From contig CAWFJP010000014.1 in assembly GCA_963816145.1 (NCBI GenBank), positions 384,001-448,000 of the forward strand: a stretch of 64,000 nt of DNA, written 5' to 3'. Within the stretch, counting starts at the first letter, position 1, and each line of letters opens with the position of its first letter. This document shows positions 3,799 to 51,996 of this stretch, in pieces. The notes beneath the pieces are model-generated. The model searched no databases, had not been told where the DNA came from, and saw nothing but the letters and a program-made list of their open reading frames with translations. Source of the DNA: an uncultured delta proteobacterium (GTDB lineage Bacteria > Desulfobacterota > Binatia > UBA9968). Position numbers and translations under genes: made by a program.

Positions 3799-3879
3799 TC
3801 ACCACGAAGGCACGAAGGACACGAAGGTTTCGGAAGAATAATATTCCGAAACTTCGTGCTCTTCGTGCCTTCGTGGTGA
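3799..3879. repeat. Gene-less CACGAAG 9-mer inverted-array element
   Basis: TCACCACGAAGGCACGAAGGACACGAAG ... CTTCGTGCTCTTCGTGCCTTCGTGGTGA; same termini as the element at 50320-50774. Confidence 0.9.
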
Positions 3880-25042: not shown

Positions 25043-25048
25043 CGGAGT

Positions 25049-25158
25049 AATGGATAATTGATAATGGAGAATGGAAAATTAGAAGAGTTGCTGCCTCAGT
25101 CGAGTACGGTTTCGATCCCTTCCGGACATTATCAATTCTCAATTATCCATTCTCCATT
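25049..25158. repeat. Palindromic 7-mer array (AATGGAT family), copy 2, between msrP and msrQ
   Basis: aatggat-aattgat-aatggag-aatggaa-aatt ... attatc-aattctc-aattatcc-attctcc-att. Confidence 0.85.
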
Positions 25159-25161
25159 GTT

Positions 25162-32018: not shown

Positions 32019-32127
32019 TGTGAAGCGTGGTCTCCGATGCCGTTGGAATAGACCGTTAAATTACATGCTTTGCCGGAAATAGGAAGAGGCTGAGGTCGGA
32101 TGCTGTGCCGTAAAGTGAAGAGGGTTG

Positions 32128-32207
32128 TCACCACGAAGACACGAAGAGCGCGAAGTTCGGAAAAGTATTCATCCGAAACCTTCGTGCCCTTCGTACCTTC
32201 GTGGTAA
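32128..32207. repeat. Gene-less CACGAAG 9-mer inverted-array element
   Basis: TCACCACGAAGACACGAAGAGCGCGAAG ... CTTCGTGCCCTTCGTACCTTCGTGGTAA. Confidence 0.9.
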
Positions 32208-32218
32208 GTCCCGTGATT

Positions 32219-33109
32219 TCATGACGTCGCAGCCGTTGCTGTAATTCTGGTAGCCACGCGTGGTGTTATGCCCAGGTCGATGCCTTCGCTGTCGAAGGCT
32301 TTCTTCAGGCGGCGGCGGTATTCGCGGCCGACGGCGTATTGCTGCGAGGGTAGAGTTTTGAAGCGGGCTTTGATGATTAAGGTAGTGTCGGTGAAGTTGT
32401 CGACGCCGAAAATTTCGATGGGCTCGATCATGGCGCGGGCGTACTCGGGTTCTTTGCGCATCTCCTCGGCGACCCGTTGCATGACGGCGACGACCCGGTC
32501 GGTGTCTTCTTTGTATGACACCGCTATGTCGATCACATATGCCGACCAGTCCATGGTTGCGTTGGCCAACGTGGTGATCGACCCATTGGGAAAGACATGG
32601 ACGACGCCGGCTTGATCGCGCAGCACCACGGTGCGAAAGGTGACCGATTCAACCACCCCGCCGGTGCCGTTGACGATGGCGATGTCGCCTACGCGAATCT
32701 GATTTTCCAGCAATAGAAAAAATCCGCTGACCAAATCACGCACCAAATGCTGGGCACCAAAGCCGACGGCCAGGCCGACGACACCGGCGCCCGCCAGGAT
32801 CGGCCCGATGTTGACGCCGATCTGACTCAGCGCGATCAAGACCACGACAAACCACAGCAGGCCGCTGCTGATGGTCCAGAGCACGCCCAACAAAGTCTTG
32901 ATGCGTTTCGCGACCGCACCTAGGTCGGGTTCTCCGTGGCCGGTGTTACGGATCAAGAACGCTTCGAGTTTGGTTACGCCGGTGCGCAGCAGCTTGACCA
33001 AGATGTAGGCTAGGGCAACGATCAGTACGATGCGTACCAGCCCCTGCAGCGTGTTGACGCCGAGAGTCATGATTCTAGCGAGGAAAGTTTCCCAAGTGTT
33101 TGGCGACAT
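32219..33109 (-). CDS. Small-conductance mechanosensitive channel (MscS/YbiO-like)
   Basis: ILAGAGVVGLAVGFGAQHLVRDLVSG, ENQIRVGD, FPNGSI. Confidence 0.92.
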   Translation of the reverse strand: MSPNTWETFLARIMTLGVNTLQGLVRIVLIVALAYILVKLLRTGVTKLEAFLIRNTGHGEPDLGAVAKRIKTLLGVLWTISSGLLWFVVVLIALSQIGVNIGPILAGAGVVGLAVGFGAQHLVRDLVSGFFLLLENQIRVGDIAIVNGTGGVVESVTFRTVVLRDQAGVVHVFPNGSITTLANATMDWSAYVIDIAVSYKEDTDRVVAVMQRVAEEMRKEPEYARAMIEPIEIFGVDNFTDTTLIIKARFKTLPSQQYAVGREYRRRLKKAFDSEGIDLGITPRVATRITATAATS

Positions 33110-39358: not shown

Positions 39359-39370
39359 CAGATAGCGTTG

Positions 39371-39479
39371 GTTCCAATCGTTCCAGCAGTTCCACGGGTT
39401 CCAGATTCGGTTATGAATTCGCGGGAAATCCCGGGGTGGTCACGATTGGAACGGCTGGAACAATTGGAACGTTTGGAAC
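39371..39479. repeat. Palindromic GTTCCA/TGGAAC 9-mer array
   Basis: gttccaatc-gttccagca-gttccacgg-gttccag ... gattggaac-ggctggaac-aattggaac-gtttggaac. Confidence 0.85.
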
Positions 39480-39595
39480 CGTCCAATTGCTCCAGCCGTT
39501 TGCGCTAACGCTTCTGTCAACTACTTCTTAACCGGCTCGGGGACGCCGGGCAGCTTGGTTTTCTCGTTGTAATATTCTGCGGAGAATTCCGGTTT
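39442..39595 (-). repeat. 154-bp direct repeat of 48064-48217 (remnant 3' end of enoyl-CoA hydratase plus downstream DNA)
   Basis: Encodes KPEFSAEYYNEKTKLPGVPEPVKK* versus KPEFSQEYYNEKTKLPGVPEPVKK*. Confidence 0.92.
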
Positions 39596-47936: not shown

Positions 47937-47942
47937 GATTGC

Positions 47943-48101
47943 GTTCCAATAGTTCCAGCTGTTCGAAAGGTTCCAACCATAAAATCCGAACTGGAAAGCG
48001 GGTCCGGTTCAGGCGAGGCCCAGTTGGCGTCGCCAGTGATGGATTGGGAAATGATTGAACGAGACGATTGGAACGGCTGGAACAATTGGAACGTTTGGAA
48101 C
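47943..48101. repeat. Palindromic GTTCCA/TGGAAC 9-mer array
   Basis: gttccaata-gttccagct-gttcgaaag-gttccaa ... gattggaac-ggctggaac-aattggaac-gtttggaac. Confidence 0.85.
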
Positions 48102-48142
48102 CGTCCAATTGCTCCAGCCGTTTTCGCTGACGCTTCTGTCAA

Positions 48143-48986
48143 CTACTTCTTAACCGGCTCGGGGACGCCGGGCAATTTGGTTTTTTCGTTGTAATACTCT
48201 TGCGAAAATTCCGGTTTGCGCCGTTCGGAGAAGGCGGCTGAGCCTTCGTCGTAGTCCTTGCTGTTGCGCAGGTGGGCGTAGAATTCCCGATGCACTTCGA
48301 AACCCTTTTCCCACCCCTGTAATTCGTAGAGAAACTTGTCTTCGATGAACTCGATGGAGTGCTGCGCAATCAGCCGGCCGTTGCGGTTGATGGTAGTCGC
48401 TAGCTCGACGCAGTCGTCGATCGAGCTTGTCCGGCTCGCAGATCTTCTGCACCAGTCCGAGACGGAACGCGGTGTCGGCGTCGATCATTTGGCCGGTAAG
48501 AGCGAACCAGTAGGCCCAGCCGCTGGGCAGCTGGCCGACATAACTCGGCCAGGCAGCCAAATGGGACCAGCGCACTTCCGAGCAGCCGAATTTCGATGCC
48601 GGCACGCAGTAGCGGATATGGCAGGACAGCGCCAAGCTGAAACCGCCGCCGACCGCGTAGCCATTGATCGCGGCGATGATCGGTTTGTGCATTTGCAACG
48701 GGCGCAGGCTCGAATAGCCGCGCGGGCCGGAGCGCGGTCCGGTCATTTCACCTCTGGCGAAGGCGATGTTTTCTTTTAGATCGCCGCCGACGCAAAACGC
48801 GTCCGCGCTGCCGGTTAAAATAATCGACCAGACATCGTCGTCGGCTTTGGCTTTTTGCCAGGCCGCATCGAGCGCCCAATAAAGGTCGCGGCTGATGGCA
48901 TTTTTTTTCTCCGGGCGATTGAGCTTGATGATCGCAATATGGGGATCGCGCTTCTCGTAAATACAAAGGGGTCCTGGTTCGGCCAT
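48143..48986 (-). CDS. Enoyl-CoA hydratase/isomerase family (frameshifts ~48300-48420)
   Basis: LNRPEKKNA, AFCVGGDL, KPIIAAINGYAVGGG; C-terminus EGSAAFSERRKPEF in a shifted frame ending TAG at 48143. Confidence 0.88.
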
Positions 48987-49003: not shown

Positions 49004-49096
49004 AATGGATAACGGATAATTGAAAATGGAAAATTTCGGACCGGTTTCGAGCAATTTCGGCTTTCATTGTCAATTTTCAATTATCCATTATCAATT
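49004..49096. repeat. 7-mer AATGGAT family palindromic array, copy 4
   Basis: aatggat-aacggat-aattgaa-aatggaa-aatt ... attgtc-aattttc-aattatcc-attatc-aatt. Confidence 0.85.
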
Positions 49097-49097
49097 G

Positions 49098-50306
49098 TTA
49101 ATAAAGCACCTTCTCTTCGTCCAATTTCTTGATCTCGTCGTCGCTGAGACCGAGTAGGTTGCGGGCGATCTCGTGGGTGTGCTCGCCCATGAGCGGCGCA
49201 ACACCGCGGACTTTGCCCGGTGTGAGCGACATACGCATGGGCACGTTCTCGGTGACGACATCGCCGGCTTCGGGCTCGGTGAGGTTGACGAGAAAGCCCG
49301 TGGCGGCGTACTGTTTGTCGTTCTTGAACTGATCTTCGACGTCTTGCACGACGGCGGCGCAGACATCGACGCTTTGGACCAGCTCCATCACTTCATAAGG
49401 ATCATGCTGCAGGGTCCAGCTGGTCACCCACTTGTCGAGTTCGTCTTTGTGACGCACGCGCTGCCAATGGGTGGCGAAATTGGCGCTGCGCTTGAGCCCC
49501 GAATTTTCCAACAGACCGGCGAGGCGTTCCCATTCGTCCTGCGTGTAGGCGGCGATCACACACCAGCGGTCGTTGCCTTTGCATTGATACGGGCCGTAGG
49601 GCGAGGCGACCAGACTGCGGTTGCCTTCGGGCTGAGGTTCGCGCTTGTTGACGGTGTATTCCAAATACCTTGGGCCGAGCAGGGCGGCGCCGATCTCTTG
49701 CTGGGCGTTGTCGATCCATTGGCCGCGGCCGGTTTTTTTCCGTTCAATCAACGCTAGGACAACGCCGAAAGCGCCCGTGACCCCGCCCATGAAATCGGGG
49801 TGCTGTGTGCGCGGCTCGGCGGTGGCCGTGGTCGCGCCCGGGTAATTCCACAAATAGGTCGTCGCCATGGTGTTGCCGACGTTGGGGCCATAGGTGAGAT
49901 CGGCGGCGTGGGGCCCGGAGCAACCCATGCCTTTGACGCGGATCAAGATCATCCGCGGGTTGATCATCTGCAAGTCGGGCCAATCGAGGCCCCACTTCTC
50001 CAAGATGCCCAGGCCGAAGTTTTCCACTAGCACGTCGGACTTTTTCACCAGCTCTTTGACCAGCTCGCGCCCCTTCGGCGTCGACATGTTGACGGTGAAG
50101 GACTTTTTACCCCGTTGCAATTTCATGAAGTCGGGCTTCTTGTTCCACAGCTTGGGGTCTTCGCCGCGATGGCCGTCGCCGCGCAGACGGGTCTCGCAAC
50201 GGATCACTTCCGCGCCGAACTCGCAGAGCACGCGGGCGACGGTGGGACCGGCGGCGCCGGTGGTCAGTTCGATGACGCGAATGCCTTCAAGGGGCAGCTT
50301 TGACAT
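49098..50306 (-). CDS. CaiB/BaiF family III CoA-transferase
   Basis: PLEGIRVIEL, GAEVIRCE, RGKKSFTVN, SDVLVENF, HPDFMGG, APLMGEHT. Confidence 0.92.
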   Translation of the reverse strand: MSKLPLEGIRVIELTTGAAGPTVARVLCEFGAEVIRCETRLRGDGHRGEDPKLWNKKPDFMKLQRGKKSFTVNMSTPKGRELVKELVKKSDVLVENFGLGILEKWGLDWPDLQMINPRMILIRVKGMGCSGPHAADLTYGPNVGNTMATTYLWNYPGATTATAEPRTQHPDFMGGVTGAFGVVLALIERKKTGRGQWIDNAQQEIGAALLGPRYLEYTVNKREPQPEGNRSLVASPYGPYQCKGNDRWCVIAAYTQDEWERLAGLLENSGLKRSANFATHWQRVRHKDELDKWVTSWTLQHDPYEVMELVQSVDVCAAVVQDVEDQFKNDKQYAATGFLVNLTEPEAGDVVTENVPMRMSLTPGKVRGVAPLMGEHTHEIARNLLGLSDDEIKKLDEEKVLY

Positions 50307-50319
50307 TGCAAAATTCCTT

Positions 50320-50774
50320 TCACCACGAAGACGCGAAGGGCACGAAGGTCAGATTTAGGATAATAGAAAACGCTTAATGCCTTTCTTCAAAACCGGTACA
50401 TTGAAATTCATCAACAGCCCTACGTTAACCTTCGCTAGTTTCATATACGTTAAGATCTGCGCTTCGTGGATCTTTAGTAATTGCTCGATGCTCTTCAGTT
50501 CCACGATCAGTCGCTGATCAACCAACAAATCAATTCGATAACCACAATCTAGCCTTGTCCCTTTGTAGCTTACTGGTAAGTCAACCTGAACTTGGAACGG
50601 AATTCCCGCTCGACTGAGTTCTGCAGCGAGGCATTGTTCATATGCGGATTCGAGCAATCCGGGGCCGAGCTCACGATGCACTTCGATGGCACAGCCGATG
50701 ACTCTGTTAGATAACGGGTCAAAATCCACTTCCCACTTTAGCTTCTCTTCGTGTCCTTCGTGTCTTCGTGGTGA
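50320..50774. mobile_element. Putative GxxExxY element bounded by 28-bp inverted 9-mer arrays
   Basis: Left TCACCACGAAGACGCGAAGGGCACGAAG; reverse complement of right arm TCACCACGAAGACACGAAGGACACGAAG (26/28 identical); encloses only the GxxExxY gene. Confidence 0.7.
50355..50729 (-). CDS. GxxExxY protein (PD-(D/E)XK nuclease superfamily)
   Basis: [46 protein letters not shown]. Confidence 0.93.
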
Positions 50775-50790
50775 GTTCCCATGATCGAAT

Positions 50791-51996
50791 TCAGATCACG
50801 CCCTCGGCCTGTAGAGCGACGAGGTCGTCGCTATTCATGCCGAGGTCGCCCACGTAGATTTCCTGGTTGTGTTCGCCCAACAGCGGCGCGGGGCGGTAGA
50901 TGTTACCGGGGGTTTCCATCAGCCGCGGCACGGGGCCGAATTGTTTATATTTGCCGACCACCGGATGGTCCATGTCGACGAATAGGCCGCGCGCTTTGGT
51001 TTGCTCCATCTCAACGAACTCCCCTGCAGTGTTGATCGGCGTTACGGCGATGCGGCGTTTCTGGCCTTCTTCGTATAGTTCCTCTTTGGTGTGCTTCGCG
51101 CAGAACTCGGCGACGGCGCCGACGACGATTTCGGGATGTTTGCGCCGGTAGGCCATCTTTTCGAACTCCGGTCCGGAGATCGACGGCGGACTGCCCATCC
51201 ACTCGACCAAACGGCGCCATTGCTCGACGGGGATGATGAAAATGCGCGCGTAGCCATTCTTGGTCTTGTACGGATCGTAAAGGTCAGTCTCCTCGCCTTT
51301 GCGTGACGCGCGCGCCGGTTTGTCGCCGGTGTAACCGTAGTTGGGAATGAAGTAGCCGGCGATGTGACCGCCGCATTCGTGCATCGACACGTCTATATGC
51401 TGGCCCTTGCCGCTGTCGAGGCGGTGATAAAGCGCCACCGCGATGCCAAAGGCGCCATAGGTCGACGCCATGCCGTAAGCGATTTCTCCCGGCGGCTGTA
51501 GCGGCGGCTCGCCCGGCTCGCCGGCGAGGTAAAGCAGATTGCCGAGCGCTATGCCGGCCATGTCGTTGGCTTTGTAGTCTTTCCATGGACCGTTTTGGCC
51601 GAAGGGCGTGATCGAAGCGACGATCAACGCCGGATTGACCGCGCTCAAATCTTCGTAAGTCAGTCGCAATTCCTTGGCGCGCGATGGCCGAAAGGTTTCG
51701 ATAATCACGTCGGCTTTTTTGCATAGTTCGAGCACGATCGCCCGGCCGTCGGGCTTCTCCACATCAAGCGTGATGCCGCGTTTGTTGGTGTTGAAGTGAA
51801 GAAAATACAGACTTTTTTCCAGGTGCGGCGTGTCGTCTTTGAACGGCGGCACGCGGCGCGATTCGTCGCCCGACGGCGCTTCGATTTTGATTACGTCGGC
51901 GCCCATGTCGGCCAAAAGCTTGGTGCAGTGCAGGCTCAGCGGCCCGCCCAAGTCGAGCACGCGGTAGCCGGTCAACGGTCCTGTCGGTGTTGCCAT
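50791..51996 (-). CDS. CaiB/BaiF family III CoA-transferase (second subunit of a BbsEF-like pair)
   Basis: [55 protein letters not shown]. Confidence 0.92.

Follow-up and report, generated by a model that had tools for sequence, protein, structure and literature searches.

Repeat families that populate a genome together with a cognate low-copy gene are an already known kind of genetic element. In the REPIN/RAYT system, as set out in three reports (PMC3116915, PMC3337134, bioRxiv 10.1101/2022.05.22.493013), a gene of low copy number carries its own repeat on its flanks, the repeat recurs without the gene as tens to hundreds of palindromes at intergenic sites, with no target duplication, several gene/repeat pairs of distinct sequence occur per genome, and repeats are more numerous where the gene is present. 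Passages on STRR repeats describe heptamer hairpins between the genes of cyanobacterial operons, of unknown function and proposed to act as transcript stabilisers (PMC2670836), and passages on the intervening sequence (IVS) of the Coxiella 23S rRNA describe a so-called selfish element with a 28-bp terminal stem and tandem heptamers ahead of an S23p open reading frame (ORF), which is excised by RNase III (PMC4990558). Here we describe a 455-bp hairpin element that bears a single gene of the GxxExxY family, at positions 50320–50774 of a 64,000-nucleotide stretch of DNA (the window) from an uncultured delta proteobacterium (assembly GCA_963816145.1, contig CAWFJP010000014.1; C14:384001-448000 of the source genome, which is G000 in our labels for genomes and loci). 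GxxExxY proteins (PF13366) form a large family, widespread in prokaryotes, whose function was listed as unknown in the family's entry by Steczkiewicz in 2012 (PMC3424549).

The element and its gene-less copies show the traits listed above for REPIN/RAYT, although the higher repeat numbers in the presence of the gene have exceptions. What appears to be new is the link between a GxxExxY gene and a repeat family; no published description of these arms or of such a link was found in a literature search of incomplete coverage from which supplements were excluded. The gene encodes a predicted PD-(D/E)XK nuclease, whereas RAYT is described as a Y1/HUH tyrosine transposase; the arms consist of three tandem units of 8–9 bp, where REPIN is described as a short imperfect palindrome; the GxxExxY gene often lies within a single hairpin; and REPIN-RAYT is described as vertically inherited, whereas the GxxExxY unit seems to cross phyla and its alleles switch. 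STRR hairpins, likewise intergenic and operon-internal with arms of tandem short repeats, are by analogy the closest described counterpart to hairpins without a gene, but their units are of 7 bp against the period of 8–9 seen here, and the passages on STRR (PMC2670836) describe no associated gene, where here there is a cognate nuclease gene. With the 23S rRNA IVS the element has in common a small ORF within a terminal stem of ~28 bp and adjoining tandem short repeats; the IVS, however, is placed in helix 25 or 45 of 23S rRNA (passages in PMC4990558) and the element between protein-coding genes, the ORF of the former is an S23p/four-helix-bundle protein (PF05635) while that of the latter matches PF13366 only, and the element is accompanied by 185 gene-less copies.

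Pairs of insertion sequences (IS) and miniature inverted-repeat transposable elements also combine terminal inverted repeats with gene-bearing and gene-less forms, but the present element shows no target-site duplication (177 hairpins) and no known transposase family, and its gene-bearing form is limited to one or two copies per genome. Free-standing homing endonuclease genes resemble it in having a nuclease gene placed centrally in a palindrome that is also found unoccupied, whereas here occupancy is 1 of about 186 and many GxxExxY genes lie between whole hairpins. Arms built from tandem subrepeats are found in eukaryotic foldback transposons.

The gene-plus-arms unit and its gene-less copies, found across phyla, point to an undescribed family of selfish repeat elements. 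The explanation that we favour, to which sequence comparison lends a probability of roughly 0.45, is that gene and hairpins form a REPIN/RAYT-like pair in which the nuclease would recognise its arm units and drive or maintain the hairpin population.

Results and discussion

A GxxExxY gene between inverted tandem-unit arms

The element consists of inverted 29-nt arms around one ORF and takes up all except 29 bp of the 484-bp spacer between two CoA-transferase genes (Table 1). As an earlier note on this DNA had seen, these neighbours are co-oriented (both are of family III and lie on one strand, with the GxxExxY gene between them), and the gene is AT-richer than its surroundings, with 46% GC against 57–58% in the 2-kb flanks. 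Its stop codon is 6 nt from the left arm and its start codon 16 nt from the right arm. The same note had given each arm three CACGAAG(N2) units. Inverted arms of three units are indeed present, but the first spacing is 1 nt in both, which gives periods of 8 and then 9; in the left arm the middle unit reads CGCGAAG, and the conserved palindrome reaches 1 or 2 bases beyond that first description, to (T)TCACC...GGTGA(A). Searched at no more than one mismatch, CACGAAGNNCACGAAG matches six times in the 64-kb window against 0.03 expected, a count that none of 100 shuffles reached.

The translated ORF matches the profiles PF13366/PDDEXK_3 (1.1e-44, 152 bits, cut-off 22), the sole Pfam family matched, and TIGR04256 GxxExxY (1.5e-45, 154.3 bits, cut-off 35). 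Its confident AlphaFold model (predicted local distance difference test score, pLDDT, 96.3) has the PD-(D/E)XK, restriction-endonuclease-like fold, that of the superfamily named in the earlier note. The motif residues are G24, E27 and Y30, and D67, E77 and K79 are the predicted catalytic residues; in 71 sequences G24, E27, Y30, D67, K79, H88, Q91, N108 and F109 are invariant and E77 is at least 90% conserved. The best structural matches (VIA-align) were generic PD-(D/E)XK nucleases: BpuSI (Z 7.8), Cas4 SSO0001 (Z 7.5) and Hjc (Z 6.3). Neither a sequence search of the PDB at E≤1 nor a Foldseek search of the model at E≤1e-3 gave a hit. A defence or phage family was rejected as the identity of the protein, with 0 hits each in PADLOC and PHROGs and no tblastn match in 50,697 phage records; among plasmid records 8 of 72,556 matched by tblastn, every one typed non-mobilizable. 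Compared among loci, codon positions 1+2 of the gene are 81–89% identical and position 3 only 32–50%; the gene is under purifying selection.

A population of gene-less hairpins

In the genome (7.82 Mb, 31 contigs, 56% GC) there are 193 forward-then-reverse pairs of CACGAAG arms, with a spacer below 60 nt in 185 (mode 24), and exactly one pair, that of the element, contains a gene. The earlier note had pointed out two gene-less copies in the window, both of which were recovered with spacers of about 24 nt; counted genome-wide, these ~80-bp hairpins with CACGAAG arms, 185 in all, are the gene-less members of the element's family. The consensus of the 105 modal copies reads TTCACC-(CACGAAG+N1-2)x3, after which come the inner TTCGGA stem, a variable loop of ~10 nt that is rich in A and T, and then the mirror image; the outer terminus (T/C)TCACCACGAAG is almost invariant across 177 anchored copies. 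Direct repeats of 2–5 nt at offsets 0–7 of these 177 hairpins were not above chance, in agreement with the previous report that no target-site duplication was visible. The period is characteristic: exact 7-mers repeated three times form 200 arrays at period 9 genome-wide, against 0–9 at periods 7, 8 and 10–14.

The association is specific to few protein families

All five PF13366 genes of the genome have inverted tandem-unit arms, with a different unit for each (CACGAAG, CACAGAG, CGCCAAG, AACGGAG and GCGCAAA, accompanied by 185, 10, 11, 17 and 3 gene-less short pairs, respectively). Two of the five lie within one hairpin and three (on C5, C1 and C24) are bracketed by whole hairpins, an arrangement also found at L078, L083 and L094 in other genomes. 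As a genome control, 5 of 600 random ORFs of 100–170 aa reached a flank inverted-repeat score of at least 30. At a score of at least 32, 24 of 4085 ORFs of 60–260 aa were retained, comprising 5/5 GxxExxY genes, 7/8 four-helix-bundle genes and 12 others, the last being for the most part either ordinary genes with a whole hairpin on each side or palindromes that are GC-rich and not periodic. This amounts to 12 of the 13 full-length genes in the GxxExxY and four-helix-bundle families, compared with 12 of the 4072 remaining ORFs, and no cargo family beyond these two emerged from the genome-wide screen. The motif count, the period-9 excess and the random-ORF control rule out chance or artefact as the source of the arms. 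RAYT/IS200 was considered as mobiliser and discarded, as none of the seven Y1-transposase (PF01797) loci of the genome has periodic arms.

The same association was found in the genus, a set of 31 genomes to which G017 from a sister family was added. At 40 of 45 testable PF13366 loci the flank score was at least 27 (reversed controls, 13–27); three of the five loci below that value keep shorter periodic arms, and L034 and L170 show none. The recurring arm classes are CACGAAG, CACAGAG, CACGGAG, CGCAGAG, two CGCAAAG types and CACGAAA, usually with one gene copy per class and genome, and at most two. A cross-phylum scan with one genome per species (79 loci, 52–73% identity) covered Planctomycetota, Acidobacteriota, Chloroflexota, Pseudomonadota, Bacteroidota, Verrucomicrobiota, Cyanobacteriota and others. 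Here 56 of 76 testable loci scored at least 30, compared with 3/76 for the reversed control; the direct control, at 19/76, reflects whole hairpins at both sides. Nearly all of these arms are built of C-R-C-R-R-A-G units at period 8 or 9 and end in (GAA)TTCACC or AACC. The enrichment of arms beside GxxExxY homologues, the lack of which the earlier note had named as refuting its proposal, extends from the genome through the genus to other phyla.

One such case is a Bacteroides finegoldii plasmid record (NZ_OY725952.1, L226 1140-1610), in which the GxxExxY gene lies between mirror arms of the form TTCACC-ACAGAGGA-CGCAGAGGA-CACGGAGG, in an element placed between radA and a gene for an FAD-dependent protein, all three genes being co-oriented. 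Nine cross-phylum loci with arms of the CACGAAG class have saturated third codon positions (26–47% identical to the window gene), and 23–30 of 30 arm positions (77–100%) are identical to the G000 hairpin consensus, a comparison that is partly circular, because these loci were picked for their arm class. The ORF and its arms are one conserved genetic unit.

It might be supposed that the hairpins serve the host, as regulatory or mRNA-stabilising structures of a REP/STRR-like kind, and that small genes became caught among them, either by accident or when neighbouring hairpins recombined. Their intergenic, operon-internal positions, the retention of some at one site across species, the ordinary genes that can sit between two hairpins and the transcript stabilisation proposed in the passages on STRR (PMC2670836) would all suit such an origin. 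We nevertheless hold it to be very improbable, since trapping would neither single out two protein families to the extent seen in the ORF screen nor hold gene and arms together across phyla.

Gain, loss and re-occupation of sites

The CoA-transferase pair is conserved in the genus, and the content of the spacer between them varies by genome. Comparison of this locus in relatives, which had been suggested at the outset, revealed both the gene with its arms and alternative alleles. Spacers of 483–532 bp with a gene-bearing element are found in G000, G005, G006, G007, G009, G012 and G025. In G008 (L055) the spacer is 342 bp long, with intact arms and a GxxExxY gene decayed to fragments with a TGA stop. 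The 140-bp spacer of G003 holds a gene-less CACGAAG hairpin with an interior similar to the inner ends of copies that bear the gene, and this allele looks, by its sequence, like an internal deletion of a gene-bearing copy. That of G037 (L056) is a 166-bp composite with partial arms of the CACGAAG, CGTTCAA and GCGCAAA families, which looks like the result of nested or successive insertions. Fourteen genomes have instead, at the orthologue of 50307–50790, an unrelated period-8 GGAGT(N3) hairpin of 92–123 bp, a family of which no gene-bearing copy was found in G000.

These states are interleaved on a tree of the flanks: G025, with the gene, and G023, with GGAGT, are sisters (branch lengths 0.013 and 0.010, respectively), G009 is paired with G033, and G000 stands beside G036, G003 and G004. 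The genes at the orthologous site are 39–50% identical at position 3, where the flanks are 79–87% identical in nucleotides, and the arm subtype of G000 agrees with G005 and G006 and not with its neighbours on the flank tree. Given the interleaved states, the extra divergence of the gene and the discordant arm subtype, the site was re-occupied, or its alleles exchanged, several times. Long-term vertical inheritance of the gene would be in keeping with the occupation of the CoA-transferase site in 7 genus genomes and of a second conserved site, locus B, in two families; against it stand the patchy states on the flank tree and a gene more diverged than its flanks.

Locus B is an insertion site of a CACGAAG-armed gene common to G003 and G017; G017 belongs to another family in the order, and its flanks are about 70% identical to those of G003. 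In G003 locus B is present on two contigs with flanks 94–96% identical, which could be a duplication or a strain mixture. Of the two gene-less hairpins in the window, that at 3799–3879 is conserved at the orthologous site in G003, G036, G004 and G007, and that at 32128–32207 is present in G003 and absent in G007, with other inserts there in G036, G004 and G009.

Repeated re-occupation of one site, by a gene more diverged than its flanks and with an arm subtype discordant with the flank tree, would also be expected of a homing-type lodger, that is, a nuclease that targets intact hairpins spread by other means and whose gene enters the loop by repair from an occupied copy. The gene does take the place of the loop in an otherwise typical hairpin, unoccupied hairpins with matching arms exist and the arms are conserved along with the protein. 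Such a lodger is nonetheless quite unlikely: only one of about 186 CACGAAG hairpins is occupied, several genes lie between two complete hairpins (C5, C1 and C24; L078, L083 and L094), the gene is not bordered on both sides by the inner stem (TTCGGA/TCCGAA) seen in the gene-less consensus, and 19 of 72 gene-carrying genomes in the survey described below have no exact arrays.

Co-occurrence of gene and hairpins

Hairpin arrays were counted in 200 genomes of the phylum as exact three-unit arrays, for which the reversed control pattern is almost absent. At least five arrays were present in 42 of the 72 genomes with PF13366 and in 7 of the 128 without it (odds ratio 24, Spearman 0.62); as the compared genomes are related, the Fisher and Spearman values overstate the case. 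Within the genus, nine genomes with the CACGAAG-armed gene (the reading frame being unchecked in two of them, G012 and G025) hold 28–222 arms, with a median of 104, and 21 genomes without it hold 1–78, with a median of 16; the median share of exact arms is 0.65 with the gene and about 0.29 without. G005, an unpublished genome, supplies one gene-bearing allele and one pair of counts.

Proposed mechanism and competing explanations

Under the REPIN/RAYT-like explanation, the locus would be a foldback-type selfish element with ends formed by inverted arrays of three C-R-C-R-R-A-G units (period 8–9) closing in TTCACC, with a small predicted PD-(D/E)XK (GxxExxY) nuclease as its only gene. The nuclease would recognise the repeated arm units, with the DNA folded as a hairpin or cruciform or as a duplex, and may cut close to the TTCACC boundary or at it. 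Both the gene-bearing copy and, through action in trans, the hairpins that lack a gene would in this way reach other intergenic sites by copying, or persist there, with no target duplication. In the transcript the 29-bp stem is probably also a processing site, as the similar stem of the 23S rRNA IVS is for RNase III, and such processing would make insertion within operons tolerable.

Several findings weigh against this explanation. All eight full-length PF05635 genes of G000 are inside inverted arms, each with its own 7–9-bp unit, and 24 of 29 PF05635 loci in the phylum (best locus per genome) have tandem-unit arms, mostly heptamers; as four-helix-bundle genes show the same architecture, a gene in a periodic hairpin needs no nuclease. 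The period-7 GGATAAT hairpins of G000 and the period-8 GGAGT hairpins of its relatives have no gene-bearing copy in G000, and full elements show little sign of recent copying within a genome. The association of hairpins with the gene, though strong, has exceptions: seven of the 128 genomes without the gene still hold 12–85 arrays, the 19 gene-carrying genomes mentioned above have none, and G036, G032 and G037 retain 38–78 arms, 60–82% of them exact, with the cognate gene not found; G075 is a further exception. Finally, the unit type of the arms follows the protein tree in the full set (36 changes, shuffled mean 52.7), but the agreement is weak without kin, with 24 changes in the cross-phylum set against a shuffled mean of 28.2 and a minimum of 22, so that co-evolution of arm unit and protein beyond kinship is weak. 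Of the autonomous/non-autonomous pair that the earlier note proposed, the comparisons support a gene-bearing and a gene-less form within a single repeat family; a part of the nuclease in spreading the hairpins is our inference, and non-nuclease genes share the architecture and some families have no gene.

The four-helix-bundle genes, first known from rRNA IVS, also bring in the possibility of an RNA cassette, in which RNase III would cut the arm stem and excise a selfish ORF from the operon transcript, the gene-less hairpins being remnants or REP/STRR-like RNA elements and the nuclease having no part in their spread. The earlier note had raised a related alternative, looping of the gene out of the operon mRNA, and this gains weight because RNase III excises the architecturally similar 23S rRNA IVS, with its 28-bp stem and heptamers (passages in PMC4990558), which is a precedent for an RNA-level role of the stem. 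The minimum-free-energy fold of the 476-nt transcript 50310–50785(-) brings both arms into pairing; where both neighbours are co-oriented, the GxxExxY gene has the same direction in 32 loci and is opposed in 5; and the intergenic hairpins lie a median of 36 bp past a stop codon, 116 of 161 being between co-oriented ORFs (28 convergent, 17 divergent). Such a cassette would, however, leave the origin of the 185 copies and their co-occurrence with the gene unexplained. Arm sequence is conserved across phyla beyond pairing, despite saturated synonymous sites, every paralogue is paired with a unit and a gene-less family of its own, and hairpins without a gene are oriented without bias with respect to transcription (61 same, 48 opposite). 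As a full account we consider it somewhat unlikely, but it is compatible with the REPIN/RAYT-like explanation and not exclusive of it; a homing-type lodger could likewise coexist with that explanation.

A known RNA family was rejected as the identity of the element, the Rfam gathering search of the window having given 0 hits and no RNA gene. 'Joints' seen in metatranscriptome run X10 proved to be other genomic hairpins and not excision products; the RNA data consist of metatranscriptome contigs with small word shares that cover parts of the flanking genes and are uninformative on transcript ends.

By analogy, the four-helix-bundle parallel suggests that the element's class also takes in rRNA intervening sequences and STRR repeats, and the period-7 arms of the four-helix-bundle genes look closer to STRR than those of the element. 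Tentatively, then, and with less confidence than in the pair itself, GxxExxY proteins may be the enzymes of a widespread class of bacterial replicators not described before, each paralogue recognising and propagating its own tandem-unit hairpins as a non-HUH counterpart of RAYT/REPIN, and together with the four-helix-bundle genes in heptamer-armed hairpins they may form one super-class. This would unite three features that have long lacked an explanation: cyanobacterial STRR repeats, ORF-bearing 23S IVS and the large GxxExxY and four-helix-bundle paralogous families.

The GxxExxY family gains a concrete candidate substrate in its own flanking tandem-unit arms. Should the nuclease act on them, it would be a small nuclease specific for sequence or structure, with targets that differ by paralogue, would stand as a second route to the REPIN/RAYT lifestyle, independent in mechanism, and would account for hundreds of intergenic hairpins per genome. 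Such hairpins break assemblies, yield spurious ORFs and likely shape the processing of operon mRNA. Culturable Bacteroides carry the architecture, which makes experiments feasible.

Table 1. Coordinates of the element, its neighbours and related features (window positions unless a genome, contig or locus is given)
Feature	Position	Strand	Remarks
Whole gene-bearing hairpin element	50320..50774	.	only gene-holding CACGAAG arm pair of the genome; spacer 399 bp
Left arm	50320..50348	+	TCACCACGAAGACGCGAAGGGCACGAAGG; TCAC-CACGAAG-A-CGCGAAG-GG-CACGAAG-G
Right arm	50746..50774	-	CTTCTCTTCGTGTCCTTCGTGTCTTCGTGGTGA, GGTGA at its end; minus strand TCAC-CACGAAG-A-CACGAAG-GA-CACGAAG-AG
GxxExxY / PDDEXK_3 gene	50355..50729	-	124 aa, GTG start, PF13366 and TIGR04256 match
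Downstream CoA-transferase family III gene	49098..50306	-	flank; AAGGA ribosome-binding site between element and ATG
Upstream CoA-transferase family III gene	50791..51996	-	flank; stop codon 16 nt from element
Gene-less hairpin, CACGAAG family	3799..3879	.	spacer ~24 nt; -63.9 kcal/mol, z -13
Gene-less hairpin, CACGAAG family	32128..32207	.	spacer ~24 nt; folds into a very stable hairpin
Period-7 hairpins, GGATAAT/TGAAAAT type	1256-1340, 25045-25160, 49007-49102		no cognate gene identified in G000
Period-9 hairpins, GTTCCA family	39368-39483, 47942-48122		roughly 110 arms genome-wide
PF05635 four-helix-bundle genes, C31/C11/C30 of G000	C31:553039-553353, C31:434758-435075, C11:340835-341149, C11:62976-63293, C11:381465-381782, C30:613970-614287
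PF05635 four-helix-bundle genes, C15 of G000	C15:203427-203741, C15:185578-185892
GGAGT(N3) hairpin loci at the element's site	L049, L050, L052, L054, L057-L066		spacer comparison
Locus B	G003 C7:2150-2500 (L017), G003 C23:36192-36542 (L027), G017 C6:750868-751218 (L021)

Other hairpins and palindromes

The window also contains hairpins of the GTTCCA family, whose arms are close in sequence to the CGTTCAA arms of the two four-helix-bundle genes on C15. These hairpins translate into spurious ORFs, for example a WNGWNNWNVWN frame at 48024–48194. On either side of a Y1-transposase fragment, in the flanks of G000 C3:724440-725081, stands a palindrome of the GGGGCGGGTTTGAAACCCGCCCC type that is GC-rich and non-periodic. 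This palindrome recurs in the G009 orthologue of window positions ~32100–32300 and may represent a classical REP/RAYT-like family beside the periodic hairpins.

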